A stretch of DNA of 46,525 nt, from positions 1-46,525 of IMG/VR virus record IMGVR_UViG_3300044698_000275; one strand, written 5' to 3'. Source of the stretch: a virus. Lineage: Duplodnaviria; Caudoviricetes. Under the pieces are notes generated by a model. It worked only from the letters and a program-made list of their open reading frames with translations, did no database searches and was not told where the DNA came from. Both the position numbers and the translations under genes were made by a program. Positions 2,615 through 45,502 of this stretch are shown here, piece by piece. How positions within the stretch are numbered: position 1 is the stretch's first letter; the number at the start of each line of letters is the position of its first letter.

Positions 2615-2629
2615 GCGGGGTGAGTGGCG

Positions 2630-2725: not shown

Positions 2726-2746
2726 TGGTGAATGGAAGGACGTGAG

Positions 2747-2947
2747 ATGACCGGGAAAGAGACGGCGAAAGAGACTGCGAAGGCGCCCCGCAAGGCGGCG
2801 CCGGACGAGGCGGTGCGGGCGAAGGCGGCCGAGCTCGCCGCGGCGATCGAGGCGGCCAGGGCGGCGGGATATGCCGTCACCTGGCCGAGCCGCGCGGAAG
2901 GCCTGGCGGCGATCGCGGTGAGCGAGACGGGCAAGGTTCGGGGCTAG
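2747..2947 (+). CDS. Small hypothetical protein
   Basis: MTGKETAKETAKAPRK...; Ala-rich, phage-like codon usage; in the tail operon. Confidence 0.55.
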   Translation: MTGKETAKETAKAPRKAAPDEAVRAKAAELAAAIEAARAAGYAVTWPSRAEGLAAIAVSETGKVRG

Positions 2948-3028
2948 CGGCACCCCTCCCCCATCCCCTCCCCTGGTCGAGTCGACTTGGGGGGGAGGGG
3001 GTTTGACGGATCCGACAAAGGACAGATC

Positions 3029-7109: not shown

Positions 7110-7284
7110 CAGGTGTCAGGGGTCAGGGGTCAGGTGTCAGGAGGCCCCTCCCCCAGCCCCTCCCCCTCCTTCGAGACGGCCCTTCGGGCCTCCTCAGGAT
7201 GAGGAAGGGGGGAGGGAGCCCGCCCGGGCAAGTGGCGGCTTCCTGACTTCTGACGTCTGACTTCTGAAAGCGAAGCGCCCTGCC

Positions 7285-9499: not shown

Positions 9500-9999
9500 C
9501 CAGGGGACAGGCGTCGGGCGTCAGGGGTCAGGCGTCGGGCGTCAGGGGTCAGGACGTGCGGGCGTTTCTCGCGCGGGCGGCGCGGGAGCCGTTCGTGTGG
9601 GGGGTCAGCGACTGCTTCCTGCTGGCGGCGGACTGGGTGCTGAGCTGCGGGCGCCGGGATCCGGCGATTGGCTGGCGTGGGACCTATCGCTCGGCGCTGG
9701 CGGCGCGGCGGCTGCTGCGCCGGGCCGGCGGGGCGGAGGCCCTGGCCCGGGACGCGATGCGGGGGTTTGCCGAGTTCGACCCGGAGGCTGAGGCGCCGCG
9801 CGACGGCGACGTCGGGCTGGTCGAGGGCGGGCTCGAGCTGCGCCGTGGCCGGCCGTGGCTCAGCCACGCGGCGGCGCTGCATGTGAACGGCCTGTGGGTG
9901 GTGCGGACGCCCAAGAGCCTGATCGGCGGCCGGTCGCCGCTGATCGTCGCCGTGGCCGGATGGAGGGTCCTCGGGTCAAGCCCGAGGATTGAAACCTGA
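9484..9999 (+). CDS. NlpC/P60-like (gpK-like) tail tip protein; start at 9484 (ATG) or 9556 (GTG)
   Basis: PFVWGVSDC..AADWV...DPA..WRGTY...GDVGLV...HAA motif; lies before the central tail protein. Confidence 0.75.
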   Translation: MAEFLTRGQASGVRGQASGVRGQDVRAFLARAAREPFVWGVSDCFLLAADWVLSCGRRDPAIGWRGTYRSALAARRLLRRAGGAEALARDAMRGFAEFDPEAEAPRDGDVGLVEGGLELRRGRPWLSHAAALHVNGLWVVRTPKSLIGGRSPLIVAVAGWRVLGSSPRIET

Positions 10000-11909: not shown

Positions 11910-11921
11910 GGGACAACACCG

Positions 11922-12824
11922 ATGGTTGACACCAAGACCAGCGACGAGACCGCCGCCGCCGTGCTCGACGGCAGCGAGCTCGTGCGCGTCGTACAGGGCG
12001 GCAACATGCGCAAGGCGCGCTCGGGGCAGTTCATGGGCCTCAGCGTCGTTCGCGCCGTGGCCACGGCAAATGTCGCGCTTGCGACCGCGCTGGAGAACGG
12101 CGATTCGCTCGACGGGGTGACCCTGGCGACGGGCGACCTGGTGCTGCTCACGGCCCAGACGGCGCCGGCCGAGAACGGGGTCTACGTCGTGCCGGCGAGC
12201 GGGGCGGCGGCGCGGCATGCGAGCTTTGCTGCCTACGACGAGCTGCCGGGGCGGTATTTCTCGGTCATGGAGGGCACGGCCAAGGCCGACACGCTGTGGC
12301 GCTGCACCTCCGATCGCGGCGGCACCATCGACACGACGGCGCTGGCGATCTCGCAGTTCACCGGCGGCAGCGGCAAGGTCGCCCAGGTGGTCAACACGCA
12401 GACGGGGGCGGTATCGACCACGGCAACGACCATTCCCGGCGATGACACCATCCCTCAGAACACCGAGGGCGGGGAGTTCATGACGTTGGCGATCACGCCG
12501 ACCGATGCGGCGTCGAAGTTGGTCATCGAGGTGGAAGTGCAGGGAGCAGTCAATGCGGGTGCACGATCGATGGCAGCCGCGGTTTTTCAGGATACTATAG
12601 CGGGCGCTTTGGCCGCCGGGTTCCACTTTTTGCCGACCATAAACACGGGGGGGCGCATACATCTCCGTCACGTCATGACGGCCGGCACCACGAGCGCAAC
12701 GACGTTCAAGGTGCGGGCCGGGTCACTCGACGCAAGCACCTTCACATTTAACGGGGTCAATGGCGCCCGCATCTTCGGCGGCGTGCTGGCGTCGTCCATC
12801 ACCATCACCGAAGTCCTGCCGTAG
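11922..12824 (+). CDS. Tail fibre / receptor-binding protein
   Basis: LDGSELVRVVQGG N-terminus; DGVTLATGDLVLLTAQT..ENGVY domain; C-terminal beta domain of different base composition. Confidence 0.7.
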   Translation: MVDTKTSDETAAAVLDGSELVRVVQGGNMRKARSGQFMGLSVVRAVATANVALATALENGDSLDGVTLATGDLVLLTAQTAPAENGVYVVPASGAAARHASFAAYDELPGRYFSVMEGTAKADTLWRCTSDRGGTIDTTALAISQFTGGSGKVAQVVNTQTGAVSTTATTIPGDDTIPQNTEGGEFMTLAITPTDAASKLVIEVEVQGAVNAGARSMAAAVFQDTIAGALAAGFHFLPTINTGGRIHLRHVMTAGTTSATTFKVRAGSLDASTFTFNGVNGARIFGGVLASSITITEVLP

Positions 12825-16083: not shown

Positions 16084-17376
16084 CTACACCGACACCGCGA
16101 TCTTCAGCAGCCAGTCGCGCTTGTGCTCCAGCGTCCCGCCCTCGCCGTAGAGCGGCCGGTTGAACTTGTGGCCCATCAGGTCGGCGGCGATGCGGTCGGG
16201 AGCGTCGGCCGCCGTCAGGCGGTCCTGGAAGGAGTGGCGAAGGCTGTAGAGCGAATGCCGCTCGGACGGCAGCAGCTGGTTCTCGGTCATGAACTTGTTC
16301 ACGGTGGCCGATAGGGTCGAGGAGCGATCCCAATAGCGCGGGAAGCCCCGGGGATGGGCGCGCATCGCCTCGAGCGAGATCCCGATCAGCGGCATGTCGC
16401 GCTGGGAGTAGGGCGTCTTGAGCCGTCGCCGGCCGGGCCCGCCGACGATCTTCACGTGCGGCACGTTCGCCCCGAGCAGGATGTCGTCGGGCTGCAGCCC
16501 GCAGATCTCCGACGGCCGCAATCCCGTCTCCACCATGATCTGCAGGATGGCCCGGGCCTCGCCGTTGAGCCTTGAGAGCGCGCCGTCGGCCAGCAGCGTC
16601 CCCACAATCCATTGCGTCGTGAAGGTGGCCCTCTGGCCGGCCTTCTCGTCCTCCAGGCGCAGCCCCTCGAAGGGAGCCCCGATGCCGAGCTCGAGCGCGT
16701 CGGTGAGGACGCGGAAGATCTGCGCCAGATGGCCGATGTCCTTGTTGGCCGACTGTGCGGTGAGGTTCTCGTCCTGGACGCGATCGACCCACCAGGCGCG
16801 CAAGGCCAGGGCGTCGGAGCGCCGGACGTCCTTCAGCGGCTTGTCGCCGACCACCGACACCAGGTTGTTGACGGCCTTCTGCCGCGGCGCCTTCCAGCGC
16901 CGGAGCTGGTCGGGTGAGTATTTGCGCTGCCGGTCGCGGGTGAGCTCGAGGTACTGCTGCCAGCCGGCGGTGACGGTGAGCTGGGGCGCGGTACGGCCGC
17001 CGAGCAGGGCGGTGCGCGCCGTCTCGTCCAGGAGGCCGATCTGCTCGAGGCGGTCGATGCGCTGCAGGATCTCCGCGAACGAGCCTTGCGCGATCTCGCG
17101 CGCCGGGCGGTACTGGAAGCCCTCGAGGCGGGCGAGCTCGACGGCGCCCTGGTAGCGGTCCTCGGCCTCGCCGCCGCTGCCCTGCTTGAGCGCCAGCCAG
17201 CGCTGCTCGACGGCCTTCTCGATCTGGGCTTTCAGCGCCTCGGCGCGATCGAGGTCGCGGGTGTCGAGCGACACCTCGACGTGGCTGCGCGGATCCACGT
17301 CGGCGAACAGCAGCGGCACGCGCCGGCGATAATGCCAGATGCCCGCGCGCCTGATCAGGCGTCGCGCCTTGCCCAC
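16084..17376 (-). CDS. int: Tyrosine integrase with N-terminal DUF6538-type arm-binding domain
   Basis: GIWHYRRRVP..VSLDTRD N-domain; catalytic ETGLRPSEI, LKT, YSLRHSF, LMGH, LYG. Likely GTG start at 17376 after GGAG; the frame stays open to 17775. Confidence 0.92.
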   Translation of the reverse strand: MGKARRLIRRAGIWHYRRRVPLLFADVDPRSHVEVSLDTRDLDRAEALKAQIEKAVEQRWLALKQGSGGEAEDRYQGAVELARLEGFQYRPAREIAQGSFAEILQRIDRLEQIGLLDETARTALLGGRTAPQLTVTAGWQQYLELTRDRQRKYSPDQLRRWKAPRQKAVNNLVSVVGDKPLKDVRRSDALALRAWWVDRVQDENLTAQSANKDIGHLAQIFRVLTDALELGIGAPFEGLRLEDEKAGQRATFTTQWIVGTLLADGALSRLNGEARAILQIMVETGLRPSEICGLQPDDILLGANVPHVKIVGGPGRRRLKTPYSQRDMPLIGISLEAMRAHPRGFPRYWDRSSTLSATVNKFMTENQLLPSERHSLYSLRHSFQDRLTAADAPDRIAADLMGHKFNRPLYGEGGTLEHKRDWLLKIAVSV

Positions 17377-17472
17377 CTCTCCACTCCCCTCGGCGTTCCC
17401 CCGCGTGTCCCGATTCGACCCATTTCTACCCATGGGACCGGACCCGCGCGCCGCCGGCGTCGGCAAATCGCC

Positions 17473-17726
17473 GTGGGGCGGTTTGTGTGGCGCCGTGTGT
17501 GGCGATTTAGCCATGCCGGCGCCCGCGCCCGCAAGCCCGAAAGCCGTCGATCCCGCCGATTCCATGGTCTCCAGCCATCCTTTCCGATCCTTCCCGCCGT
17601 CGAAAATGGCGACCCCGGCAGGATTCGAACCCTGGCTCTCAGGATGGAAAAGGCTTGGTTGATCTGGGGTTAACGACGGCGCCAGCGGCGGTGTGGGCGG
17701 ATTTGTGTGGCGGTTCGTGTGGCGAT
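17473..17726. repeat. attP arm-type direct repeats (GTGTGGCG-like, about 12-bp period) on both sides of the core
   Basis: gtggggcggtttgtgtggcgccgtgtgtggcgat (17473-17506) and gtgggcggatttgtgtggcggttcgtgtggcgat (17693-17726). Confidence 0.75.
17607..17631 (-). other. attP core: 3' end of a tRNA (T-loop to CCA), probably tRNA-Arg
   Basis: Minus strand reads GGTTCGAATCCTGCCGGGGTCGCCA; adjacent to the integrase. The Arg assignment is from recalled tRNA sequences only. Confidence 0.88.
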
Positions 17727-17782
17727 CGGCGCCCTCGCTGCAGGGGCCAGGAAACGCGATGACCTTGGCTGCCACGGCCCCG

Positions 17783-22670: not shown

Positions 22671-22706
22671 GGCAGGGCGCTCCTTTCAGGGGTCAGGGGT
22701 CAGGGA

Positions 22707-23084
22707 TCAGGCGGCGCCGTTGGGGCCGAGGTGCTTCGAGAAGGGCCCGGAGGCCTCCCGCTGCAGCCGCCGGTCGTGGAAGCCCGGCTTGCCGCTGGCC
22801 TCCTGCTGCGGCTCGGCCTCGATCAGGAGGGCGGCGCAGCCTTCGCGGTACTGGGTGAGACGGCTGAGGTTGAACTCGAGCTGCTGGACGTGCTCGAGGC
22901 CGAGGGTCTGGAACTGGCGCAGGCGCTCGATCTCGCGCTCGTAGGCGCGGATCGTCTCCTCGGTCGCCCCGAGGGTGTCGCGGGCGTCGTCGAGCTGATC
23001 CTTGCAGCGGGAAATCTCGTCCTCGGTCGAGCGCCGGCGCTCGGCGATCGCCGTGGCGAAGGTGGTGATGTGGGTGGTTTGCAT
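22707..23084 (-). CDS. Hypothetical coiled-coil protein
   Basis: 125 aa; AAAGGA RBS. Confidence 0.65.
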   Translation of the reverse strand: MQTTHITTFATAIAERRRSTEDEISRCKDQLDDARDTLGATEETIRAYEREIERLRQFQTLGLEHVQQLEFNLSRLTQYREGCAALLIEAEPQQEASGKPGFHDRRLQREASGPFSKHLGPNGAA

Positions 23085-23113
23085 GGCAGGGCGGTCCTTT
23101 CAGGGGTCAGTGG

Positions 23114-23383
23114 TCAGGGGTCAGGATGGGGCTTGGAGCCGGCGAGGCGATGAAGCTCGTTGATCAGGGCCTGGCGGCCGGCGATGGTTATGCGGGCGAG
23201 GCCTTCGTTCTCGAGGGGCACATCGAGGAAGCCCAGGCGCTCGAGCGCGTCGATCGTTTTCGGCAGCGCCCGCCAATGCGGGACCGACCTGTCGCCCTGG
23301 GCGCGCCAGCCGTTCGGATACCATTCCAGCGGCCCCTTGCTGGCGCGGGCGAGTGCGTTGCGCTGGCTGAGCGTGAGCTTCAT
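23114..23383 (-). CDS. Hypothetical winged-helix-like protein
   Basis: MKLTLSQRNAL...TIDALERLGFL...ITIAGRQAL. Confidence 0.6.
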   Translation of the reverse strand: MKLTLSQRNALARASKGPLEWYPNGWRAQGDRSVPHWRALPKTIDALERLGFLDVPLENEGLARITIAGRQALINELHRLAGSKPHPDP

Positions 23384-25681: not shown

Positions 25682-26305
25682 TCAGTTGCGCAGCTTCACC
25701 CAGGCGACGGGGAAGGCCCGGTCGACGGACTGATCCTCGATGTCCGGCTCGTCGGGGTTGACGGAGCGAAGGGTGAAGAGGTCGGGCTGCGAGCCCCGGG
25801 TCAGCTTCTTGATGTAGCGGCGGCCGTCGGCCAGGCGCACGTAGCAGGTGCGCCCGACGAGGTCCCGGGGGTCGTGGTCCCTGGGTTCGCAGACCACGAC
25901 GTCGCCCGGCACGAAGCGCGGCCGCATGGACTCGCCGCGCACCACCACCGCGGCACCGCCGGCGCAGCCCGGCGGCGCCTCGATGTCGCCGAGGTAGGGA
26001 TCCTCGCCGTTGAAATCGAACACCTGCTCGCCGGCGCCGGCATAGCCGGCCAGCGCGATCGTCGAGGACCTCTCCTCCGGACCTATGCCCTCGAGCAGCC
26101 AGCCCGCGGTCGTGCCCAGCACCGGGGCGAGCGACAGGATGGTGCGCGTGGAAACGCCGTGCCTGTCGGCCGGATGGTCCTTCGCAGCGCGCCTCAGGTT
26201 GCGGATCGCATCGTCGCTCAGCCCCGCCTTCCGGGAGGCCGCCGTGGCGCTCAAGTTCACAACCTTCAGGCGCTGGTCGACCCGCCTCACAATGTCCTCC
26301 AGCAT
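25682..26305 (-). CDS. cI: CI-like repressor with S24 autopeptidase
   Basis: N-terminal HTH; GYAGAG cleavage site; GESMRP (Ser) and YIKKL (Lys); divergent from cro. Confidence 0.9.
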   Translation of the reverse strand: MLEDIVRRVDQRLKVVNLSATAASRKAGLSDDAIRNLRRAAKDHPADRHGVSTRTILSLAPVLGTTAGWLLEGIGPEERSSTIALAGYAGAGEQVFDFNGEDPYLGDIEAPPGCAGGAAVVVRGESMRPRFVPGDVVVCEPRDHDPRDLVGRTCYVRLADGRRYIKKLTRGSQPDLFTLRSVNPDEPDIEDQSVDRAFPVAWVKLRN

Positions 26306-26309
26306 GTAT

Positions 26310-26386
26310 CGGTAGAATGACCGGATGCCCGGTTCGACGCGACCGGTAAGATGACCGTTGACAGCATCGGTAATTTTACCGATGAT
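26310..26386. promoter_or_regulatory. OR region: three operators and the PR promoter
   Basis: CGGTAGAATGACCG (26310-23), CGGTAAGATGACCG (26344-57), CGGTAATTTTACCG (26368-81); TTGACA (26358) N17 GATGAT (26381). Confidence 0.85.
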
Positions 26387-26393
26387 CGCCGCC

Positions 26394-26660
26394 ATGACGT
26401 CCATCAATCATCTGCTGCGAGTCGCGCGCGCCTACGGCGCGGCCGAAGGAATCGCGCCGTCGACGGTGAGCTGGCGCGTATTCGGAGACACCAAGAAGCT
26501 GGGCGCGCTCGAGACGGGGTCCGACATCCAGATCGGGCGCTGGGAGCGCGCCATGCAGTGGTTTTCCGACAACTGGCCCGCCGGCACCGAGTGGCCGGCG
26601 GGCATCGCGCGGCCGATGCCGCAGCCGGACCAGGCCACCCCCGAATCCAAGGCGAGCTGA
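26394..26660 (+). CDS. cro: Cro-like repressor
   Basis: ARAYGAAEGIAPSTVSWRVFGDTKKL...WFSDNWP....WP; divergent from cI. Confidence 0.8.
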   Translation: MTSINHLLRVARAYGAAEGIAPSTVSWRVFGDTKKLGALETGSDIQIGRWERAMQWFSDNWPAGTEWPAGIARPMPQPDQATPESKAS

Positions 26661-27445: not shown

Positions 27446-27738
27446 GGCGGGGGCGGGGGAAGGCTGGCAAGGCACCGGACCCGGGCGTGCGCCTGGAGAT
27501 CGTGATCGGGGCGGCTGACGCGCGCCGGCTGCTGCGCCTGGCGATCGCGGCGGGACTGACGGCGGAGGCGTGCGCGGCCTCGATCGTGGCGGAGGTGCTG
27601 GCCGACGACGCGGCGGCACACAGGGAGCAGGGGGCGGGGGTCAGGGAACAGGGGTCGGGGGTCAGGTGTCAGGAAGCGGCGGCGGTGGCTTGGGACGAGG
27701 CGGGCGGCGCCCCGCCGGCGGGAGGGTGGCTGCAATGA
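27442..27738 (+). CDS. Hypothetical protein
   Basis: GGAGG RBS, ATGA coupling; C-terminus encoded by heptamer repeats. Confidence 0.55.
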   Translation: MRRGRGKAGKAPDPGVRLEIVIGAADARRLLRLAIAAGLTAEACAASIVAEVLADDAAAHREQGAGVREQGSGVRCQEAAAVAWDEAGGAPPAGGWLQ

Positions 27739-28178
27739 GGCTGGTGGGGCTCGGCAAGGGACGGTTCGAGATGCTGGGTCCAGGGGACGGGGGTCAGGCG
27801 TCAGGGGTCAGGAGGGCGCCTGCCAAGCCGACGCTGATGGCGCAGGCGGCGATGCGCGCGGCGGAGCGACGGGCCGACGAGCGGCGCTTCGCCGAGGATG
27901 CCGGGATCGCGGCGCCGGCGTATCGGCCGGCGCGCTTCACCGATCTGGTGGCCGACGAGTGCCAATGGCCGATCGATGAGCAAGGCGACTTGCGCTGCGG
28001 CGCCAAGCAGGCGGCGGGGCCGGGCCAGCCGTACTGTCCACAGCACCGCGCAATCTCGCGCGGTGCCAGGGGACGGGGGCCAGGCGTCAGGGACCAGGAC
28101 GACGTCCTGACCCCCCGGATCGAGTCCGGGGCAGGCTCTGACACCCGACCCCTGAAGCCCGCCAAGCGGGCGTCCTGA
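27735..28178 (+). CDS. gcrA: GcrA C-terminal (Cys3-His) domain protein lacking the N-terminal HTH
   Basis: FTDLVADECQWPI....RCGA.....PYCPQHRAI matches the GcrA C-terminal pattern. Confidence 0.75.
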   Translation: MRLVGLGKGRFEMLGPGDGGQASGVRRAPAKPTLMAQAAMRAAERRADERRFAEDAGIAAPAYRPARFTDLVADECQWPIDEQGDLRCGAKQAAGPGQPYCPQHRAISRGARGRGPGVRDQDDVLTPRIESGAGSDTRPLKPAKRAS

Positions 28179-29066: not shown

Positions 29067-29272
29067 TGGTGGCAGGGGTCAGGGGGCAGGGGTCAGGGGT
29101 CAGGACGTGTCTGGGCGAACGGGCGATCATGGCGCTGCTCGAGCGGCCGGACCTGGTGGCCGAGCTCGCGGTCGCCGAGGCGGCGCTCGACGCCGGTGAC
29201 GAGGAGCTCGCCGACAGGGCGCTGCGGGCGCTGTCGGGCGGGCTGCGGCGCGCCAGCCAGCGGGCACGGTAG
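29063..29272 (+). CDS. Hypothetical protein
   Basis: ATGA coupling with GGAGGGG RBS; N-terminus encoded by a heptamer repeat (GVRGQGSGVR). Confidence 0.5.
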   Translation: MMVAGVRGQGSGVRTCLGERAIMALLERPDLVAELAVAEAALDAGDEELADRALRALSGGLRRASQRAR

Positions 29273-29276
29273 CACC

Positions 29277-30389
29277 ATGGCACCACGACAGTCGCGCATT
29301 CCGGCCGAGGCCGCCACCGACCGGCGGCTGCGGCCGTGCGCCAGGCGCGTGCTGATGGTGCTGGGCGTGCACACCGACCGCAACGGCTGGTGCGTGCGGT
29401 CGCTGTCGAAGATCGCCGCGGAGCTCGGCTACGACGTGCGCTCGGTGCGCCGGGCCGTCCGCCAACTGGAGGACATCGGCTACGTCGAGGTCGCGGCGCG
29501 GCGCGGCAGCGCCGGCAGCTGGCTCGCCTCGGGCTACCGGGTGAAGACGCCCGGGATGGCGGTCCCCCCGCTGGCTCCTGAGTCCGGGGGGTCCGGACAC
29601 GGGAGTCCGGAGGGGTCGGACTCCCAGGAGTCCGGGGGGTCCGGACTCTCAGGAGTCCGCCCCGTACCCTTAACGGCTTCTTCTAACGAGGCAGCAGCAG
29701 GGCGCGGGCGCGGGCGCAGTCGCGCCGACGCGCGCGAGGCCCCCGAAGCTGCCGCCGCTGCCGCCGAAGGGGGGGAGTCGGGGTTGGAAGAAGACAGCCG
29801 GGAGCGGCAGCGCAAAATGGCGGCGGCGGTGGCGCTGCACCGGCGCATCGCCGAGCGGCTGGGCCATCCGGGCGGCTACCGCGACGAGCTGGGCGAGGTG
29901 TGCGCCTGGCTCGAGGCGGGCTACGACCCCGACCGCCACGTGATGGCGGCGGTGGAGCGCGCGGCCAGGCGGCGGAACTTCCAGGCGCCGCTGATGCTGC
30001 GCTATTTCCGCGAGCTGATCGCCGAGGCCGCGGAACGAGCGCCGGGGATCCGTAGGGCCGCCGGGGCAACTTTTGCCGCCACAAACGAGGCGTTGAAAAG
30101 TAACGAGGCGGCGGCCGAGCCGGAGCCAGAGGGGCCGGCGGAGTGGCTGGCGATGCGGGGGGCGCTTCGCCGGGCGGTGGGTGAGGACGCGTTCTCGAGC
30201 TGGTTCGCCCGGCTGGAGTGGCGGGGGGTGGCGGGGCGCACCCTCACGCTTGCCGCGCCGACGCGGTTCATCGCCGGCGAGATCGCCAAGCGCCACGGCC
30301 AGGCGCTCGACGCGATCGCCTCGGGGCTGGTGGCCGGGGTCGAAGCGGTAAGGCTCGTGGTGGAGAAGCGCAAAGGGGCGGGGCCATGA
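29277..30389 (+). CDS. Replication initiator: N-terminal wHTH, C-terminal DnaA N-terminal-like domain
   Basis: SLSKIAAELGYDVRSVRRAVRQLEDIGYV; LRRAVGEDAFSSWF..L....LTLAAPTRFIA (DnaA domain I-like); internal iterons. Confidence 0.85.
   Translation: MAPRQSRIPAEAATDRRLRPCARRVLMVLGVHTDRNGWCVRSLSKIAAELGYDVRSVRRAVRQLEDIGYVEVAARRGSAGSWLASGYRVKTPGMAVPPLAPESGGSGHGSPEGSDSQESGGSGLSGVRPVPLTASSNEAAAGRGRGRSRADAREAPEAAAAAAEGGESGLEEDSRERQRKMAAAVALHRRIAERLGHPGGYRDELGEVCAWLEAGYDPDRHVMAAVERAARRRNFQAPLMLRYFRELIAEAAERAPGIRRAAGATFAATNEALKSNEAAAEPEPEGPAEWLAMRGALRRAVGEDAFSSWFARLEWRGVAGRTLTLAAPTRFIAGEIAKRHGQALDAIASGLVAGVEAVRLVVEKRKGAGP
29572..29660. repeat. Putative origin: four palindromic iterons CGGACTC-N4-GAGTCCG inside the initiator gene
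   Basis: Two complete copies (29617-29634, 29642-29659) and two degenerate upstream copies, spaced by G runs. Confidence 0.75.
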
Positions 30390-30661
30390 GCCGGGACAAG
30401 ATGAGCCGGGATGACGAGCTGCTGCGCCAGCACCGGCGCGGGGAGGCGATGATGCAGGGGCTGGCGGCGCACATCGAGGAGACGCTGCCCGAGGGCTTCG
30501 CCTTCGCGCTCGTCGCCTTCACCTGCGGCGAGGGCGGCTATGTCGGGTATGTGTCCAATGCCGAGCGGGGCGACATGATCGCGGCGCTCCGCGAGTGCGC
30601 CGACACGCTGGAGGCGCGGCGCGATTCGCCGCCCGGCGCGCCGATCGTCCGGCAGCATTGA
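30386..30661 (+). CDS. Hypothetical protein
   Basis: GFAFALVAF..G...YVSNAERGDMIAALRE; ATGA coupling. Confidence 0.7.
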   Translation: MSRDKMSRDDELLRQHRRGEAMMQGLAAHIEETLPEGFAFALVAFTCGEGGYVGYVSNAERGDMIAALRECADTLEARRDSPPGAPIVRQH

Positions 30662-30849
30662 GGCCGAGCGGACCGTCGTCAGGCTACTGCCTGCAGACCT
30701 CCCGAGCCTCGCTTCGCGCGACGCATTAACGCGGCGGGGCAACATCGCCACCGGGATTGCGATTCGATTGTGGCGGCGCTTTAAGGTACCCTGATCCCCG
30801 CTGGTTGGGGGAGGTCCGATCGGCCCTCATCCGAAGGGCCACGTCACGA

Positions 30850-31368
30850 ATGCAAACCGAGCACCTGCTGTCGCCGGCCGGGCGGCCCACACCGGGGTCC
30901 GCCCGCATGGTCGAGCTGCGCCGCCACTGCGAGCGCCTGGTCGAGCGCTCCATCCTCACCCTTGCCGCCGTCCCCGACCCCGACGCCCGCTACCGGCGCT
31001 GGTGGGTGTCCTCGATGCCCGAGCCGGTCAGGCGGGCGGTGGAGGCCTACAACATCGAGGAGGCGCCGCGGGTGCGCCGCTTCGTGCCGTCGCGCGCCGA
31101 CCACGACCGCTACCTCGAGGTGCTCGGCTGGCTGAACTGGCTGGCGGCCGGCAACGACGGGCCGCGGGAGCTCAAGATCGTGTGGCTGCGCGCCTTCGGG
31201 GTGCCGTACTGGAAGATCGCCCAGCGCTTCGGGCGCTCCGACCGCACCATCCAGCGCTGGCACGAGGCGGCGATCTCCAGGCTGTTCCGGCGCTACTGGA
31301 TCGACGTCGACCGGCTGGCGACCGACCCGCTGCCGGGCGCGGGCGCCGGCATGGAGGCGGCCGAGTGA
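30850..31368 (+). CDS. DUF6362-like late-gene regulator (Q/sigma region 4-like)
   Basis: S.MPEPVR...AY...PSRADHDRYLEVLGWLNWL...KIVWLRAFGVPYWKIA..GRS...RW; precedes a promoter-terminator unit. Confidence 0.7.
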   Translation: MQTEHLLSPAGRPTPGSARMVELRRHCERLVERSILTLAAVPDPDARYRRWWVSSMPEPVRRAVEAYNIEEAPRVRRFVPSRADHDRYLEVLGWLNWLAAGNDGPRELKIVWLRAFGVPYWKIAQRFGRSDRTIQRWHEAAISRLFRRYWIDVDRLATDPLPGAGAGMEAAE

Positions 31369-31424
31369 GCGCGGAAGCGCGCAAAGCGTCAACAAAGCGT
31401 TCACCATAGCGAGAAATTTCCTGC

Positions 31425-31455
31425 TTGACGGTGTCGCGGATGTCGGTCAAAGCTG
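31425..31455 (+). promoter_or_regulatory. Putative late promoter (PR'-like)
   Basis: TTGACG at 31425 after an AT-rich gaaattt; weak -10 near 31448-31454. Confidence 0.5.
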
Positions 31456-31471
31456 GCCATGGCATGGCAAG

Positions 31472-31510
31472 AGGCCCGAAGCGCGCGACATCCGCGCCTC
31501 GGGCCTTTTT
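31472..31510 (+). terminator. Intrinsic terminator (tR'-like)
   Basis: aggcccga...tcgggcc stem followed by TTTTT. Confidence 0.75.
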
Positions 31511-31659
31511 CATGCCGTTCCCTGTGTAAGCAGCCGATCGTCGCTCACCCCCTCCAGCACCTGGACGGGGCGGCCTGCCCTTGCGAGTCGCACGCCGTCC
31601 CGGTCCCGGCCCGCGGGGACGGGCGGCAACGATCCGGGTGCGCGAACAGTTCCCGAGAC

Positions 31660-31980
31660 ATGATCACGGCCTCAGAATCGGCCGCGCTGGCGCTGATCGA
31701 CGAGATCGAGGGGCTGAGCGCGGGCCTAGGACGCACGGACACCGGCCGGTGGATGCACCGGACGCTGGCCTACGGGCGCCCGCGCCTGGCGCTGGTCGAC
31801 GAGCGCGAGGCGCTGGTGGCGCTGTTCGCCGAGGGGGTCGAGCCCCATATCGCCGAGCTCACGGCGCTGCTGCACAGCCACTGCCACACGCTTGCCGCGC
31901 TCGCGCGGCTCGGCCTCGAGGGCCATGTCGCCCTGCCGCCGCGGCCGCTGGCGCGCCAGCTCTCGCTGGTGCGCTCCTGA
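31660..31980 (+). CDS. Hypothetical protein
   Basis: MITASESAALALIDEIEGL...; phage-like codon usage. Confidence 0.55.
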   Translation: MITASESAALALIDEIEGLSAGLGRTDTGRWMHRTLAYGRPRLALVDEREALVALFAEGVEPHIAELTALLHSHCHTLAALARLGLEGHVALPPRPLARQLSLVRS

Positions 31981-32207
31981 CTTCTGACCCTCGGGTCGCG
32001 GCCCGAGGGCAGGCTTTCTGACTTCCGTCCCCTGAAACCCGGGCGCCCCGGCGAGCGAGCCCCTCCCTGCTCAACCCCTCGCGCCGGTGGCACTTTCGCC
32101 GCCCCGCCCGCCCGGGCCACGCCGGAGCCTTCTCCGGCCGCCCCTCCGACCCGCCGGGGACCAGGGTCGAGGGGCCCAATTCGCCCACCTGAGATCTGGA
32201 CCCTGAA

Positions 32208-32894
32208 ATGCACCTGCTCGTCGCCGAGCCGCACCCCGACACATCCTCATGCCTCGAGCTCATGCTGCGCTCGGAAGGCTTCCGCGTGCGCCTGACGGCG
32301 GAGGCGGAAGAGGCCGACTATCTCGCCCGGCACTTCTCCTTCGACCTGGTGACGCTCGAGCCGGGCATGGAGGGCGGCAAGGGCTGGGAGGTGCTGCGGG
32401 GCATCAGGCGCGCCAAGGTGGCGGTGCCGGTGATCCTGGTGTCGGGGCTTGCAGGTGTCCATGACGTGGTGCGGGGGCTCGACCTGGGCGCCGACGACTA
32501 TCTGACCAAGCCGTTCCACAAGGACAATCTGGTGGCGCGCATCCGGGCGGTGGTGCGGCGCGCCCGCGGGTTCGAGAGCTCCGTCGTGGAGGCGGGGCCG
32601 CTGCGGCTCGATCTCGCGTCGTGCCTGGTGGAGGTCGACGGCCAGCCCGTCCACCTGACGGGCAAGGAATACGGCCTGCTCGAGCTGCTGGTGCTGCGGC
32701 GAGGGCAGGTGGTGGCGAAGGACCGGATCCTCGATCACCTCTACGGCGGGCGCGATGAGCCCGAACTGAAGATCGTCGACGTGTTCGCCTGCAAGCTGCG
32801 CCGCAAATTGGCGGACGCCGGCGCCGGCGGGCTGATCGAGACGGAGTGGGGCAGGGGCTACGTGCTGCGCGCCCCGGCCGCCGCGGCGGCGTGA
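32208..32894 (+). CDS. ctrA: CtrA cell-cycle response-regulator homologue with Glu at the phospho-acceptor position 51
   Basis: ELMLRSEGF, GADDYLTKPFHKD.LVARI, VHLTGKEY..LELL.LR.G, HLYGG.DEPELKI.DVF.CKLR.KL and IET.WGRGYVLR are CtrA signatures. Confidence 0.92.
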   Translation: MHLLVAEPHPDTSSCLELMLRSEGFRVRLTAEAEEADYLARHFSFDLVTLEPGMEGGKGWEVLRGIRRAKVAVPVILVSGLAGVHDVVRGLDLGADDYLTKPFHKDNLVARIRAVVRRARGFESSVVEAGPLRLDLASCLVEVDGQPVHLTGKEYGLLELLVLRRGQVVAKDRILDHLYGGRDEPELKIVDVFACKLRRKLADAGAGGLIETEWGRGYVLRAPAAAAA

Positions 32895-32945
32895 GCCTGT
32901 CCGATTGACAGGTGTGCTTGCCGGGGCACCCGGCGGGCGGTAATC

Positions 32946-33094
32946 GAGCTCGTGGCCCTTCGGGGCCGAGGGAGACGAGAGCCGGAGCCCGTAAACGCTC
33001 CGGACGCGGGGCCAACCAGCCAAGGACAGACCCCGCGCAGCGCCAGCCTGGATAACGCTCTCCCGCCACCGCCTTTCGGCGGCGGGGCGAGCTC
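32946..33094 (+). ncRNA. Candidate multi-stem structured RNA / 5' leader of the com-methyltransferase unit
   Basis: Nested complementary segments: gagctc/gagctc, ggccc-ttcg-gggcc, gggag/ctccc, ccggagc/gctccgg, cgcgggg/ccccgcg, ccgcc-tttc-ggcgg. Confidence 0.5.
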
Positions 33095-33111
33095 ACCCGG
33101 GCTTGGCCGCC

Positions 33112-33429
33112 GTGTCACTGCAAAGCGTCCATTGTGGTAAATGCCGCGCCCTCCTGTTCAGGGCCGGACGAACCGCCATCCGCGATGTCATCGAAATCAA
33201 GTGCCGCCGCTGCGGTCACTTGAACATCCTGAGGCCTCCAGAGCCCAAGCCTAAGCGCCCCGACCCTGACCGGCAGCGGCGCGAGCAAGGTCAAGGGCCA
33301 TGGACTCAGGAGCGCGGCGCATCCGGCGCGGCGACGTCTGGCAGCTCGGGACGCACCGCCTCCTGTGCGGAGACGCGACCGACGCCGGCGACGTCGCGCG
33401 GATCCTCGAAGGGCAAACGCCGCACCTGA
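33112..33429 (+). CDS. com: Mu Com-family zinc-finger regulator (start uncertain: 33103 or 33112)
   Basis: HCGKCRALLFR.......IEIKCRRCGHLN; its 3' end overlaps the methyltransferase start, as in Mu com/mom. Confidence 0.8.
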   Translation: MSLQSVHCGKCRALLFRAGRTAIRDVIEIKCRRCGHLNILRPPEPKPKRPDPDRQRREQGQGPWTQERGASGAATSGSSGRTASCAETRPTPATSRGSSKGKRRT

Positions 33430-34070
33430 TGGTCACCGACCCGCCCTACGGGGTGCGCTACGACCCGGCCTGGCGGGTGGGCAAGGTCGGCCGGGGCTCC
33501 AAGGTGGCCGGGAGGCCTTTCGCCGGCGACACGCAAGCGGACTGGTCCCCAGCCTGGAAGCTGTTCCCGGGCGATGTGGCCTATGTCTGGCATGCCGGCA
33601 AGATGGGTCACATCGTGGCCCGGTCGCTGCGGATGGCAGGCTTCGACGTGCGGTCTCAGATCATCTGGGCGAAGCCGTATTTCGCCATCTCGAGAGGTCA
33701 TTACCACTGGCAGCACGAACCCTGCTTCTATGCGGTGCGGCAGGGGGCAACGGGTCACTGGAACGGCGATCGCAAGCAGTCGACCCTGTGGCGGATCACA
33801 GGGCAGACGACGGGCATCATGCGCGACCGCAAGGAGACGTACACGGGCCATGGCGCCCAGAAGCCGGTGGAGGCCATGGCTCGACCGATGCGCAACAACA
33901 GCCAAGCGGGCGATCTCGTCTACGACCCCTTCCTCGGCAGCGGGACCAGCGTCATGGCGGCCGAGCGCGAGGGCAGGGTTTGCGTCGGGCTCGAGATCGA
34001 GCCGGTGTGCTGCGATATGATCCTGCGGCGCTGGGAACGGGAGACCGGCACGCCGGCGAAGCGCGGGTGA
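33300..34070 (+). CDS. DNA methyltransferase, N6/N4 beta class
   Basis: GDVWQLGTHRLLCGDAT, VTDPPY, HGAQKPVE, YDPFLGSGT. Confidence 0.92.
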   Translation: MDSGARRIRRGDVWQLGTHRLLCGDATDAGDVARILEGQTPHLMVTDPPYGVRYDPAWRVGKVGRGSKVAGRPFAGDTQADWSPAWKLFPGDVAYVWHAGKMGHIVARSLRMAGFDVRSQIIWAKPYFAISRGHYHWQHEPCFYAVRQGATGHWNGDRKQSTLWRITGQTTGIMRDRKETYTGHGAQKPVEAMARPMRNNSQAGDLVYDPFLGSGTSVMAAEREGRVCVGLEIEPVCCDMILRRWERETGTPAKRG

Positions 34071-34375
34071 CGCGGCCCTCGGCGCGGGCCCGGCTCTACG
34101 ACAGCCGCTGGGACAAGGCGCGGGCTGGCTGGCTGGCCAAGCACCCGCTGTGCGTCATGTGTCTGGCGCGGGGGCTCGTGGTGGCGGCGACGGTGGTCGA
34201 CCACATCAAGGCCCACAAGGGCGATCTGAAGCTGTTCTGGGATCGGAAGAACTGGCAGTCGCTCTGCGAGCACGATCACAACGCCCGCAAGCAGCAGATC
34301 GAGCGCCGCGGCTACTCCGCCGAGGTCGGCGCCGACGGCTGGCCCACTGACCCCGCCCACCCAGCCAACCGCTGA
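34067..34375 (+). CDS. Terminase-associated HNH endonuclease
   Basis: HPLCVMC...ATVVDHIKAHKGD..LFWD..NWQSLC..DHN..KQ. Confidence 0.9.
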   Translation: MTRPSARARLYDSRWDKARAGWLAKHPLCVMCLARGLVVAATVVDHIKAHKGDLKLFWDRKNWQSLCEHDHNARKQQIERRGYSAEVGADGWPTDPAHPANR

Positions 34376-34450
34376 CCCCCGGGGGGCGGGTCAAATCTCT
34401 GCCACCCCTGGGGCCCGGACCGGCTGGGGTGACTTCTGCGTTCGGCCGCG
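34376..34450. other. Probable cos packaging region
   Basis: Intergenic gggggggcgggtcaaatctctg...ggaccggctgggg between HNH and TerS, where HK97-like cos sites usually lie. Confidence 0.45.
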
Positions 34451-34476
34451 AAATTGAGACGAAAACCTGGACTGCC

Positions 34477-34944
34477 ATGAAAGGGCGCAAACCGACGCCG
34501 TCGCACCTTAAGCTGGTGAAGGGGAATCCCGGCAAGCGGTCGCTCAATCCGAAGGAGCCGAAGCCCCGTCGGTCGCGGACCTCCGCTCCGGTTCATATGA
34601 GCGACAAGGCGCGCGAGACCTGGGGTTACGTGACCGGGCTGCTCGACCGCATGGGCGTCCTGACGGAGGTCGACGCCGTTGCGCTCGAGATGATGTGCGA
34701 GGCCTACGCCGATTATCTCGGCGCCCGGGCCGAACTCGATGACTTCGGCAGCAACTACTACGAGACGGTCAACCAAACGGGCGGTGTGATGCACCGAACG
34801 CACCCGGCGGTCGCCGTGATGCAGGACGCCGACCGGAGGATCAAGTCGTGGCTCGCCGAATTCGGCATGACACCAAGCGCGCGGACACGGGTGAGTGGTA
34901 GTGGCGAGGAAGACGAAGACCCCGCCGACCGATTCTTCGCCTGA
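34477..34944 (+). CDS. terS: Terminase small subunit, P27 family
   Basis: MKGRKPTPSHLKLVKGNPGKR...HPAV...EFGMTPSARTR. Confidence 0.92.
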   Translation: MKGRKPTPSHLKLVKGNPGKRSLNPKEPKPRRSRTSAPVHMSDKARETWGYVTGLLDRMGVLTEVDAVALEMMCEAYADYLGARAELDDFGSNYYETVNQTGGVMHRTHPAVAVMQDADRRIKSWLAEFGMTPSARTRVSGSGEEDEDPADRFFA

Positions 34945-40128: not shown

Positions 40129-40230
40129 CCTGATCGCCTGGACTGACGCCTGAGCGAACCGGGCGGCTTCGGCCGCCCGCCACTCCCCTCTCCCCCCTTT
40201 CACACTTAGTGTCCATCTGGAGACCTCGAA

Positions 40231-40668
40231 ATGAAAGACATGCATTCCAGCATCAAGGTGCTGCGGGCCATCGAGCCGGTGGCGGTCGGCACCTCCGGCA
40301 TCGCCGGCGGGCAGCTGAGCCCGGTCCTCGACCGGCGCGGCTACAACTCGGCCGAGTTCGTCATCAGCCACGGCACCGCCGGCGCGACCAGCGACACCAC
40401 CTCGGTGGTCGCCTACGAGTGCTCCACCTCCGACGGCAGCTTCACCTCGGTCGCCGACGCCGACCTCATCGGCACCGAGGCCGCGGCCGGCCTGCCGGCC
40501 GAGGCGACGTCGCGCACTTCGGGCGTCGGCAAGAACATCGCCACCAGGCTCGGCTATCGCGGCAACAAGCGCTACCTGAAGCTGCGCCTCTACGGCACCG
40601 GCCATGCCACCGGCCTGGTGGCTGCCGCGCTGGTGCTCGGCGATCCGGACCTCGGCCCGGTCGCGTAA
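40231..40668 (+). CDS. Capsid-associated/decoration-like protein
   Basis: 145 aa beta-rich protein right after the capsid gene; GGAG RBS; LGYRGNKRYL motif. Confidence 0.6.
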   Translation: MKDMHSSIKVLRAIEPVAVGTSGIAGGQLSPVLDRRGYNSAEFVISHGTAGATSDTTSVVAYECSTSDGSFTSVADADLIGTEAAAGLPAEATSRTSGVGKNIATRLGYRGNKRYLKLRLYGTGHATGLVAAALVLGDPDLGPVA

Positions 40669-40682
40669 AGAGCGCGCAGGCC

Positions 40683-42077
40683 TTGCTCGACAACGGAGAA
40701 CGGCAGGTCGCGCCCGAGCTTTCGGGCATCAGGCGCGACCACCTTGCCCGCTACCGGTGGGCTGTCCGGCAGCTGCCGGCCGGCTCGCGCGTGCTGGATT
40801 GCGCCTGCGGGGTGGGCTACGGCGCCTTCATCCTGGCCAACGCCTTCCATCGCGTCACGGCCGTCGACAACAATGCCGAGGCCATCGCCTACGGGCGCGC
40901 GCACTACGCCAGCGACCGCATCGACTATTTCATCGGCGACGCGGCGGAGCTCGAGGGGATAGAGCTCGGCCAGTTCGACGCCGTGACGTCATTCGAGACC
41001 ATCGAGCACCTGGCCGACCCGCTGCCGATGCTGAAAGCGTTCCGCGCCGCCGCGCCGAACCTGATGGCGAGCGTGCCGAACGAGGAGAAATTCCCCTACC
41101 GGGGTTACGCCTTCCACCACCGCCACTACACGCGGGCCGAATTCCAGGAGCTGCTCGCCGAGGCGGGCTGGCAGGTGACCGGCTGGTACGGCCAGGAAGG
41201 CCCTGAGTCGGATGTCGGGGCGGGCGTCAACGGCAGAACCGCCATCGTGACCGCGATGCGGGCGGAGGCGGAGTCCGCATCCTTCGAGACGGCCGCTTCG
41301 CGGCCTCCTCAGGATGAGGCCGCTGCCGAGGTCGTGCCGGAGCATGTGGCGATCCTCGGGGTGGGGCCGTCGCTGACGGCCTATCTGGAGATCGCCAAGA
41401 GGCTGGGCGGCCGCCGGGCCTATTGCGACGAGACCTGGGGCATCAACGCGGTCGGCGGCGTGATCAGTTGCGACCGGGTGTTCCACATGGACGACCTGAA
41501 GGTGCAGGAGGCACGGAGCCAGGCGGCGCCGCAGGGCAACATCGCCCGCATGGTCGACTGGCTGAGAACCCACCCGGGCCCGGTCTACACCAGCCGGCGG
41601 CGCGAGGGCTATCCGGGCCTGGTCGAGTTCCCACTCGAGGCGGTGCTCAACGGAGGCTACGACGGGAACGGCGGGGCGCCCTACTTCAATTCGACGGCGG
41701 CCTATGCCGTCGCCTACGCGATCCACATCGGGGTCAAGCGCATCTCGGCCTTCGGCATCGACTTCACGCTGCCGAACATGCATTCGGGGGAGCGCGGGCG
41801 GGCCTGCGTCGAATTCTGGCTGGGGATCGCCGCGGCGCGCGGCATCGAGATCACGGTGCCCGAGACGTCGACGCTGCTCGACGCCTGCGCGCCCGACGGC
41901 GAGCGGCTCTATGGCTACGACTGCACCGACGTGCGCTTCGCGGAGGATGCCACCGGGCATCTCCGGGTGATCTTCGAGGAGCGCGAGACCATCCCGAGCG
42001 CGGCCGAGATCGAGCGCCGCTACGACCACTCCCGCCATCCCAACCGGCTGCTGGCCGGCGACCACGAGGAGAGCTGA
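40683..42077 (+). CDS. Class I SAM methyltransferase fused to a DUF115/sialyltransferase-like Rossmann domain
   Basis: GER...HLARY, VLDCACGVGYG, SFETIEHL; then VAILGVGPS..WGINA..YFNST.AYAVAYA...I..FGIDF; TTG start inferred. Confidence 0.7.
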   Translation: MLDNGERQVAPELSGIRRDHLARYRWAVRQLPAGSRVLDCACGVGYGAFILANAFHRVTAVDNNAEAIAYGRAHYASDRIDYFIGDAAELEGIELGQFDAVTSFETIEHLADPLPMLKAFRAAAPNLMASVPNEEKFPYRGYAFHHRHYTRAEFQELLAEAGWQVTGWYGQEGPESDVGAGVNGRTAIVTAMRAEAESASFETAASRPPQDEAAAEVVPEHVAILGVGPSLTAYLEIAKRLGGRRAYCDETWGINAVGGVISCDRVFHMDDLKVQEARSQAAPQGNIARMVDWLRTHPGPVYTSRRREGYPGLVEFPLEAVLNGGYDGNGGAPYFNSTAAYAVAYAIHIGVKRISAFGIDFTLPNMHSGERGRACVEFWLGIAAARGIEITVPETSTLLDACAPDGERLYGYDCTDVRFAEDATGHLRVIFEERETIPSAAEIERRYDHSRHPNRLLAGDHEES

Positions 42078-43540: not shown

Positions 43541-45502
43541 GTGGCGCTCCCACCGCACTCCGCCGACCTCGCGTATTTCATCGACGTTCAGCAGAGCGAG
43601 ATCACCAAGACCGGCGACCTGATCGACGCCATATCCGACCTGTCGGGCGTCGGCGCCGCCACGACATCGACAGGGACTTTGCGGCCCACGCACAAAACCG
43701 CGGCCGGCGGGGGCATCCGGTTCTCGGGCGCCCAGGAGATGCTTGTCGACACCGCCTGGTCCATGAACCGGCAGGCGTCGGCGCTGTTCATCGTCAGCCG
43801 TACCGATCGTTTGGGCAGCACCACGAACGCACTCACCTACATGCCGCAGTCGGGCGGCACGAACAGGCTGGCGGCCTACTATACGGGACAGATGTTCTCC
43901 GGCTTCGACAGTGCTCAGCGCAATTCCGCGCTGGAACACGGCCACGGCATCGAAACCCATTTCATGTCTCTTGGAACGACGGGGTCCAGGCTCGGGGTCG
44001 GCGCCGAGGAAATGACCACTGTTGCTTTCGGGGCCGGCACAGTCACGGGAGGCAAGATCGGCCGGTGGGATGGCACCAGCTTCCCGTTGGGCGCCGAGAT
44101 CATCGCCATCATCGCCTACAATCGGGAACTCAGCCAGGCCGAATGCAACGAGGTCCGCGACTGGTGCGAGACGCAATACCAGGCGGTGGCGCGGGACGAG
44201 GCGACAGTCCTGATCTTCGACGGCGACAGCCTCACCGATGGTGTTCAATCATCCGATGCGATGACGTTCTCCTACCCGGCGCAGTTGTCGCGTCTGGGAT
44301 CGCACTACCCGAAGATATGGAACGACGGCACTGGTGGAGCCAAAATCCAGGACAATGTTCTGGCGACCAACGTCAAGACCCAGCTGACCAACTTCGCCGC
44401 CTACACGAACCGGGTGGTCATGTTCTGGTTCGGGACGAACGACATCTCGTCGGGAAGGACCGAGGCGCAGATCGAGGCCGACATCGACAGCTTCATCAGC
44501 GCCGTTCGAGCCCACGACGCGGGCGCAATCATCATCGCCACCACGATCATCGCCCGGGAGCCGTTCAATCCCACCCAGGACGCGCTCATCGTCACGATCA
44601 ACGATCACATCAAGGTCACGGCCGACTTCGACCGGGTGGTCGATCTGGCGGCAGACGCGAGGCTTTCGGACGGCACCGACACCACCTACTACGACGCCGA
44701 CGGCATTCACCTCAACGACACCGGCTATGGCGTGGTGGCCGATCTGGTCCGTGCCGATCTGGTGACCGCCGGCTATCTGACCGAGGCGGCCGGCGAGATC
44801 GCAGGCACGACAGCACTGGCCTTCTCGGGCACGGCCGCGCTCGCCGGCACGGGCGCGCTCTCCGGCGTCTCGGCCCTGAGCCTCGCCGCGTCCGGCGCGC
44901 TGAAGGCGACCGCGGCGGCCAGCGGCGCCACGACGCTCGGCTTCGCCGCCACGGCGGCGCTCGCCGCGACCGGCGCCCTCGCCGGCACGTCGTCGCTCAC
45001 GTTCGCCGCCACGGCGACGGCGGCGAGCGCCGGCGGCCTCTCCGGATCGGCCGCCATCACCTTCGACCTGGCGGCCAACCTGACGGCCGCCGCGGCGCTG
45101 TCGGGCACCGTGGCGGTCGGGATCGCCGCCACCGGGCGCCTGACCGGCGCGGCGGCCATGGCCGCGGTGTCGGCGCTGGCGTTCGTCGCGGCCGGCGAGC
45201 TTCGCGGCCGCGGGGCGCTGGCCGGCGCCTCGGCGCTCGCCTTCACGACCGAAGGCGCGATCACCGGCGAGCAGGGCGGGGTCGCCGGCACGGCCGCGCT
45301 GGCGTTCGCCGCCTCCGGCGCCCTGCAGGGCACAGGCGCGCTTGCCGGTGCGGCGGCGCTGGCGTTCGCGCTCACCGCGGCGATCTCCGGGGCTGCGGCC
45401 GCGGGCGTGCCCGCCCGGCTTCCCGCCGGGGGGGCGCGGCGATCGAGCGCCGGCCCGGCGCGGCGGATGACGGGCGGCGGCCCGGCGGCGAGGATGCGAT
45501 AG
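43541..45502 (+). CDS. Fibre/spike protein: beta-sandwich domain, SGNH/GDSL esterase, and ten 20-aa Ala/Gly repeats
   Basis: FDGDSLT (block I), FGTND (block III), DGIHLN (block V); repeats LxGxxALxFxAxGAL from about 44798 to 45400. Confidence 0.75.
   Translation: MALPPHSADLAYFIDVQQSEITKTGDLIDAISDLSGVGAATTSTGTLRPTHKTAAGGGIRFSGAQEMLVDTAWSMNRQASALFIVSRTDRLGSTTNALTYMPQSGGTNRLAAYYTGQMFSGFDSAQRNSALEHGHGIETHFMSLGTTGSRLGVGAEEMTTVAFGAGTVTGGKIGRWDGTSFPLGAEIIAIIAYNRELSQAECNEVRDWCETQYQAVARDEATVLIFDGDSLTDGVQSSDAMTFSYPAQLSRLGSHYPKIWNDGTGGAKIQDNVLATNVKTQLTNFAAYTNRVVMFWFGTNDISSGRTEAQIEADIDSFISAVRAHDAGAIIIATTIIAREPFNPTQDALIVTINDHIKVTADFDRVVDLAADARLSDGTDTTYYDADGIHLNDTGYGVVADLVRADLVTAGYLTEAAGEIAGTTALAFSGTAALAGTGALSGVSALSLAASGALKATAAASGATTLGFAATAALAATGALAGTSSLTFAATATAASAGGLSGSAAITFDLAANLTAAAALSGTVAVGIAATGRLTGAAAMAAVSALAFVAAGELRGRGALAGASALAFTTEGAITGEQGGVAGTAALAFAASGALQGTGALAGAAALAFALTAAISGAAAAGVPARLPAGGARRSSAGPARRMTGGGPAARMR

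Follow-up and report, generated by a model that had tools for sequence, protein, structure and literature searches.

Alphaproteobacteria, among them model organisms, plant symbionts, and marine bacteria, have CtrA as their central cell-cycle switch. What would a virus do with a copy of this regulator whose phospho-acceptor aspartate has been replaced? The question is raised by the ctrA-like gene of virus record IMGVR_UViG_3300044698_000275 (Duplodnaviria; Caudoviricetes), whose 46,525 nucleotides make up the window analyzed here. A first-pass annotation, made from the letters alone, had described the product as a CtrA with a natural phosphomimetic substitution, D51E, and a C-terminal Ala-Ala. 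Our analysis leads to a reading that we hold to be somewhat probable: the gene would encode a phosphorylation-independent CtrA that dimerizes, binds the CtrA boxes of the host, and imposes CtrA output irrespective of the CckA-ChpT phosphorelay.

The window is the entire IMG/VR virus record, carries a 127-bp direct terminal repeat, and is rated 100% complete. With its integrase, S24 repressor, terminase, portal, capsid, and tail genes, it is the complete genome of a temperate phage, and the annotation's claim that the gene is phage-encoded is confirmed. The GC content of the gene is unremarkable, and the third-position GC of its open reading frame (ORF), 0.92, is on par with that of other genes of the phage. 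The product has an OmpR/PhoB-type layout, a receiver followed by a winged helix, with the fold agreeing, and both Pfam domains are full length (PF00072 receiver, residues 4-113, 1.3e-20; PF00486 Trans_reg_C, residues 145-220, 1.7e-20). The top NCBIfam family is CtrA (NF045991, 258.7 bits), matched colinearly from residue 1, just as the annotation had it (protein residues 1-223, profile 1-224); the runner-up, cztR/silR/copR, reaches 143.8 bits. Judged by these profiles, the nearest family of the gene is CtrA and not another OmpR-type regulator, an alternative that the annotation itself had raised. Its best 119 relatives in 5.8 billion clustered proteins are 47-57% identical and are named CtrA wherever the source names them; the phage protein itself aside, no protein in that collection is more than 57% identical. 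There was no close CtrA-type match among the 40 matches listed from phage records. The protein is matched end to end by phrog_731 of PHROGs, a family of unassigned function (5.5e-56, residues 1-222 against 2-226 of a 227-position profile), so phage-borne OmpR-type regulators are already catalogued. A search of sequencing runs found the gene in one DNA run, maybe the source sample, and in no RNA run among the matches listed.

The active site of the receiver has been lost, and its switch residues have been kept. In an alignment of the best 120 homologues, column 51 is D in 116 rows and E solely in the phage protein; D occupies column 8 in 116 rows and column 9 in 118, where the phage protein has P8 and H9. 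The two substitutions that the annotation had pointed out, D51E and EDD to EPH, therefore hold both in the sequence and in the alignment. Removing six rows (P0002, four whose active sites are unusual, and the phage protein) left 114 host-type CtrAs, and columns at least 95% conserved among these were taken as near-invariant. In the receiver, 23 of 66 such columns are altered, including D8P, D9H, D51E, L54M, P55E, and D56G, as well as A13S, S15C, and I16L in helix α1. Identity to the host consensus is 0.30 in the pocket, 0.33 in β3, and 0.11 in the β3-α3 loop; it is 1.00 in β5 and 0.82 in α5. S or T at column 79, Y at 98, and K at 101 are conserved across the 120 homologues and retained here. 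With PF00072 recognized and the phosphotransfer residues D51, D8, and D9 replaced, the receiver is by sequence of the pseudo-receiver class. Because the aspartate and the pocket are gone and helix α1 is changed, it is predicted not to be phosphorylated by CckA-ChpT.

The DNA-binding domain has 4 of 54 near-invariant columns altered (V134L, T168V, T170A, and N176D); none lies in the recognition helix or the wing, and the annotation was right to call both kept. The recognition-helix region (residues 183-201) shares 84% identity with the host consensus, and the loop joining helices 2 and 3 (YGG-x-DEPELK), which we take to be an RNA polymerase-contacting surface in this family, is retained save for M182R. 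The divergence is thus lopsided: the active-site loops are wrecked, and the β5-α5 face, S79, Y98, K101, the recognition helix, and the wing are kept. Were the gene a decaying passenger, a host ctrA acquired by chance and losing its function, E51 would be one random step, and the heavily mutated active site would be expected, as would the variability of residue 51 among phage relatives described below. However, the genome is complete and the frame of the gene is unbroken, with phage-like codon usage; although overall divergence is about 45%, 50 of 54 near-invariant DNA-binding columns and β5/α5 are retained; and the two Pfam domains are full length, the structural model is confident, and like copies occur in unrelated phages. 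Such decay is, in our view, very improbable. The protein terminates in RAPAAAAA. A C-terminal Ala-Ala is part of the ClpXP degradation signal of Caulobacter CtrA, and the annotation had taken the tail as a degron. The residues are indeed present, and they would be compatible with ClpXP recognition, yet they are non-discriminating, since AA is the ending of 46 of the 120 homologues and of 6 of the 19 phage copies.

The AlphaFold2 model (mean predicted local distance difference test [pLDDT] value of 92.7; predicted template modeling score of 0.75) has a canonical receiver and winged helix, and its top fold matches are all OmpR/PhoB regulators, HP1043 (2hqr) being among the matches. Superposition of the modeled receiver on 4qpj_C, the solved receiver of CtrA, gives a template modeling score of 0.95 on the target, a root mean square deviation (RMSD) of 1.2 Å, and 47% identity. 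Homodimer prediction with residues 1-122 gave a score of 0.59, the best of 3 controls giving 0.00, and so passed a mark that is attained by 20 of 30 solved one-chain pairs versus 1 of 23 solved single chains. The runs share at least 96% of contacts with a partner pLDDT of at least 93, and the contacts, at residues 72-122, correspond to the α4-β5-α5 face. Similar OmpR/PhoB receiver dimers have already been solved, so this pass may reflect likeness only and is no proof of dimerization.

Asp-less CtrA copies, mostly with Glu, recur in unrelated phages. Pattern scans of IMG/VR with the phage protein and two odd relatives yielded loci that were translated and aligned; 19 of them are full-length CtrA genes on viral contigs, the window included (partial L024, L025, L026, and L047 and short forms were excluded). 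At residue 51, nine have D, six have E (the window, L007, L008, L011, L014, and L017), two have N, and one each has A and G; just 5 of the 19 retain both pocket aspartates. The neighbors of all 19 are phage genes (integrases, terminases, DnaB, polymerase A, RtcB, methylases, and a strong GcrA in L017); the loci have almost no other gene in common with the window, which is why we regard the phage backbones as unrelated. An exhaustive HMMER search was made against 1.84 billion cluster representatives. Of the best 150 matches, 123 reach the N terminus, and these divergent CtrA-like representatives have D in 75, E in 17, S in 7, N, A, and G in 6 each, and other residues in 6. The recurrence of D51E, which the annotation had suggested looking for, is thus borne out by 5 further E51 copies among the 18 other phage loci and by the 17 representatives. 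E51 requires at least four changes on well-supported branches in both of our trees; on the best trees, 24 rows take 20 changes in FastTree and 23 rows take 12 in IQ-TREE.

Chromosomal copies are uniform at this position. The nearest prophage lies in the genome of a Nitrobacter: its portal is 71% identical, its head genes are the same, and its methylase is related. From 401 genomes of its order and two further genomes, 44 chromosomal loci were obtained, two of which are other OmpR-type regulators; D51 is present in 44/44 and EDD in all 43 having the N terminus, and no E51 copy occurs among the 44. A CtrA match was found in 381 of the 401 sampled genomes; five have two copies, and all ten of these copies have D51 (7 candidates scored per genome).

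Compared with cellular CtrA (NF045991; 4QPJ, a receiver with ChpT), the phage copy is alike in its colinearity, its DNA-binding columns, its fold, and its Ala-Ala end. It is unlike in its 47-57% identity, its lower profile score, the replacement of D51, D8, and D9, its rewritten β3-α3 loop, and its being phage-encoded, cellular CtrA being chromosomal with D51 in every locus checked. The laboratory allele ctrA(D51E) has the same substitution at the same residue. As far as the available parts of the papers cited here go, this allele has been used as an active or phosphomimetic form that, combined with a stabilizing C-terminal change, gives G1 arrest (PMC5189948), and CtrA(D51E) bound a promoter that wild-type CtrA left unbound (PMC6363796). 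Apart from that substitution, the allele is wild-type CtrA, acidic pocket included, whereas the phage protein is without D8 and D9 and has 23 near-invariant receiver changes; its state is therefore not readable from the laboratory allele alone. ChxR, an atypical OmpR/PhoB regulator, dimerizes, binds DNA, and activates without phosphorylation (PMC3960148). ChxR and HP1043, both Asp-less, likewise join a nonphosphorylatable receiver to a winged helix; unlike the phage protein, which copies a host master regulator and keeps its DNA-reading residues, they are chromosomal and have their own regulons. From its sequence, the phage protein would be an atypical pseudo-receiver OmpR/PhoB regulator that is at the same time a phage-borne copy of CtrA.

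The conserved DNA-binding domain and dimer face would also serve a dominant-negative decoy, the alternative named in the annotation, that occupies CtrA boxes, or mixes with host CtrA in dimers, without activation and so turns the regulon off; the block on replication initiation could then be released, or pili and flagella could be shut down, excluding other phages. Phage relatives with A, N, G, or S51, the classic "off" substitutions, stand beside the E forms, some as near-identical sisters, in agreement with such a role. The DNA-binding helix 2-3 loop, presumably a polymerase contact, argues against it, since the loop is retained save for that one residue. K101 and S/T79 are kept in E51 forms at the rate of true receivers, unlike in other Asp-less forms, which fits an active-like state: in raw counts, K101 is retained in 20/24 E51 forms, 71/83 D51 forms, and 17/42 other Asp-less forms. 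This retention in E51 forms would fit Glu engaging the switch; tests that corrected for relatedness, whether of E51 with P8 or with K101, had no power. The D51E alleles, moreover, were active in two species in the portions available of the two reports (PMC5189948 and PMC6363796). We consider a decoy unlikely, and the reading as an active, phosphorylation-independent CtrA preferable.

Several observations weigh against that preferred reading. The score of 258.7 bits is below the curated cut-off of 350 for the NF045991 equivalog, and no Shine-Dalgarno-like AGGAG precedes the start codon, to which CCCTGAAATG directly adjoins. In the phylogeny, the branch of the phage protein is long and could not be placed (IQ-TREE, 1.01 changes per column), and the clade that united it with other P8/E51 proteins in FastTree (support 80) did not reappear in IQ-TREE. 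A raw link between P8 and E51 (12/19 versus 12/130, Fisher p 5e-7) was unconfirmed by an independent-pairs test, which had too few pairs (median p 1). Residues A194 (32787-32789) and E213 (32844-32846) are rare, each found in 2/120 and 4/161 rows, and in the alignments made here they occur together only in the phage protein and in the receiver-less L006 protein; the site preference may therefore differ from TTAA-N7-TTAA. Close relatives differ at residue 51 (L014 E versus P0021 A, support 99; L017 E versus L013 D; P0249 E versus P0232 D; L007 E versus P0004 D), so Glu51 is neither fixed nor strictly required in the group. In addition, Glu is the commonest replacement of Asp in pseudo-receivers, and the phosphomimic idea has been refuted in some instances, according to the part available of PMC12632262. 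Of the annotation's phosphomimetic E51, the substitution itself is real and recurrent; Glu as a necessary mimic is weakened by the E/A and E/D pairs and by that paper. E51 is one candidate only for the source of any activity.

The phage genome contains no exact CtrA box and no excess of such boxes over chance: one box with one mismatch was found versus 0.09 expected, inside the integrase gene, and six with up to two mismatches versus 4.5 expected. If the phage protein reads CtrA boxes, its targets would therefore be in the host. Control of the phage's own late promoter by phage CtrA through canonical sites was dropped as a candidate, as the boxes are not above chance. A related possibility is that the CtrA scaffold has drifted to a new DNA site and serves as a middle or late activator of phage genes. 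The gene sits on the lytic strand where the replication and packaging modules meet, ahead of the Com/methylase/HNH/terminase block, and activators of this kind often lie just upstream of packaging genes; the rare A194 and E213, common to the receiver-less L006 protein, would also agree. Yet CtrA-type sites are in excess nowhere in the phage genome, and all near-invariant DNA-contact columns are unaltered. In the Nitrobacter prophage, which has the same head genes, the 10 kb upstream of the portal gene contain no CtrA gene, so the packaging module works in its absence. A regulator of the phage's own genes is thus quite improbable. The annotation's statement that the gene is expressed from the late region found no support: a promoter and terminator scan of 30500-34600 returned nothing, though at 70% GC such a scan of an alphaproteobacterial phage tells nothing either way, and the gene lies ahead of the packaging genes, outside the late operon proper.

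In the preferred mechanism, a receiver without Asp51 and the metal-binding pocket could not be phosphorylated, and the protein would instead dimerize through α4-β5-α5 and read TTAA-N7-TTAA. Its targets would be in the host chromosome, at origin, division, motility, pilus, or gene transfer agent promoters, and after infection or induction the phage would impose a CtrA-on state at any phase of the host cell cycle. The annotation had envisaged that the host could thereby be held in G1, or its receptor expression rewired. Alphaproteobacterial phages have been linked to the CtrA/GcrA circuit before: in the available parts of these papers, host CtrA binds phage DNA (Mascolo et al. 2022, PMC9437464), phage Jorvik is likewise tied to host CtrA (PMC10589892), and phiCbK encodes a homologue of GcrA, another master regulator (PMC3556154). 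In the first two, the host's CtrA acts on phage sites, whereas here the phage encodes CtrA and has no CtrA boxes. No description of a phage-encoded CtrA turned up in our full-text literature searches, which covered main texts outside subscription journals.

Table 1. Features of the ctrA-like gene and of the surrounding phage genome (window coordinates)
Feature	Position	Strand	Remarks
ctrA-like gene	32208..32894	+	228 codons, ATG start, TGA stop; from ORF list and sequence
Receiver domain, residues 1-122	32208..32573	+	pseudo-receiver type, by sequence
E7-P8-H9	32226..32234	+	replaces acidic pocket E-D-D
Glu51 (GAG)	32358..32360	+	phospho-acceptor position, within FDLVTLE
β3-α3 loop, residues 52-60	32361..32387	+	most diverged stretch, 11% identity to host consensus
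Ser79 to Lys101	32442..32510	+	includes kept switch residues S79, Y98, K101
α4-β5-α5 face, residues 84-122	32457..32573	+	predicted homodimer interface
Winged-helix DNA-binding domain, residues 125-222	32580..32873	+	
Recognition helix, residues 188-203	32769..32816	+	KIVDVFACKLRRKLAD; helix in model
C-terminal Ala5 tail	32877..32891	+	pLDDT <50, predicted disordered
Upstream intergenic region of ctrA-like gene	31981..32207	+	degenerate CTGA-heptad motifs, no AGGAG ahead of ATG
Tail genes	178-12800		
Lysozyme	13420		
Gam	15224		
Tyrosine integrase	16087-17775	-	
S24 repressor	25685-26407	-	
Replication initiator	29196-30386		with DnaA_N domain
DUF6362	30757		
ORF	31459-31977		function unassigned
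Com-like zinc ribbon	33103-33426	+	
DNA methylase (N6/N4)	33300-34067	+	
HNH	ends 34372		
Small terminase	34429		
Large terminase	34895		
Portal	36662		
ClpP-type protease	37824		
Capsid	38656		

The gaps beside the ctrA-like gene, 227 and 208 bp, are intergenic (Table 1), and the protein atlas gave no usable match for the ORF upstream. An Rfam scan of the whole phage genome returned no match, and tRNA genes are absent. None of the cultured relatives is close, the large terminase being at most 55% identical to any phage record. A "cell-cycle trio" of GcrA, CtrA, and CcrM in this phage was rejected because the methylase is not CcrM (38 bits versus a cut-off of 830); a weak match to the GcrA C-terminal region lies at 27570-28175 (+), with 26.2 bits versus a Pfam threshold of 26.9 and no NCBIfam match. 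The phage of L017 has a clear GcrA (4737-5351, 1.4e-36), 2.6 kb upstream of its E51 ctrA. The Com-like zinc-ribbon ORF overlaps the start of the methylase, a layout like that of Mu com-mom, and DNA methylases adjoin ctrA also in L011, L019, and L021. Further downstream, the head-tail region includes a 622-amino-acid ORF (40209-42074, +) that has an S-adenosylmethionine methyltransferase domain and is overlapped in other frames by shorter ORFs; beyond it, a 653-amino-acid protein (43541-45499, +) with a GDSL lipase/acylhydrolase domain is likely a tail-associated esterase.

Arrays of a CTGANNN heptad, 3-4 units each, are found at 7116-7140(-), 7243-7267(+), 22686-22710(-), 23100-23124(-), and 27794-27811(-), with degenerate copies at 31977, 32018, and 32189. 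The 7-base period places TGA in all three frames, and three arrays are followed by gene starts of AAGGAG-like and CGCCCTGCC-ATG type; CCCTGAAA has 5 occurrences versus 0.5 expected. The arrays may be a three-frame stop cassette or an intergenic regulatory site.

Other CtrA-related forms were seen among the phage loci. A C-terminal extension of 40-50 residues with the motif SPSLAPE-x-RD-x-ID is common to the E51/A51 copies L007, L008, L014, L016, P0021, and P0040 and is absent from host CtrAs and from the protein of the window. Short, receiver-less CtrA mimics (L005 5647-6246, L006 5764-6261, L027, L033, and L037) are built of an unrelated N terminus followed by just a CtrA-like DNA-binding domain (DEPE-x-KI-x-DVF-x-CK ... 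WG-x-GY). Eight provirus records (L028-L032 and L034-L036) end in no more than the final 55-65 codons of a host-type ctrA, located near 8001-8200 of each locus. Immediately upstream of this fragment, L032 has a tyrosine integrase ORF (6956-7960), and in L029, L030, and L034, an NAD-dependent DNA ligase follows the fragment. These proviruses look as if they integrate into the 3' end of host ctrA and duplicate it.

A wider reading, which we advance tentatively and hold to be plausible but short of probable, is that alphaproteobacterial phages have repeatedly captured ctrA and made kinase-independent forms of it, mostly D51E, as a portable switch forcing the CtrA-on state; the copy described here would then be one working example of a widespread, undescribed class of takeover factors. 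Close relatives carry E, A, N, G, and D forms, among them natural repeats of the classic constitutive-allele substitution, and these are variants with which residue 51 can be probed; a CtrA output uncoupled from CckA-ChpT is a possible genetic tool. A phage with its own CtrA beyond the control of the host phosphorelay would, if true, be a virus seizing the switch, the opposite of phages that heed the CtrA of their host.

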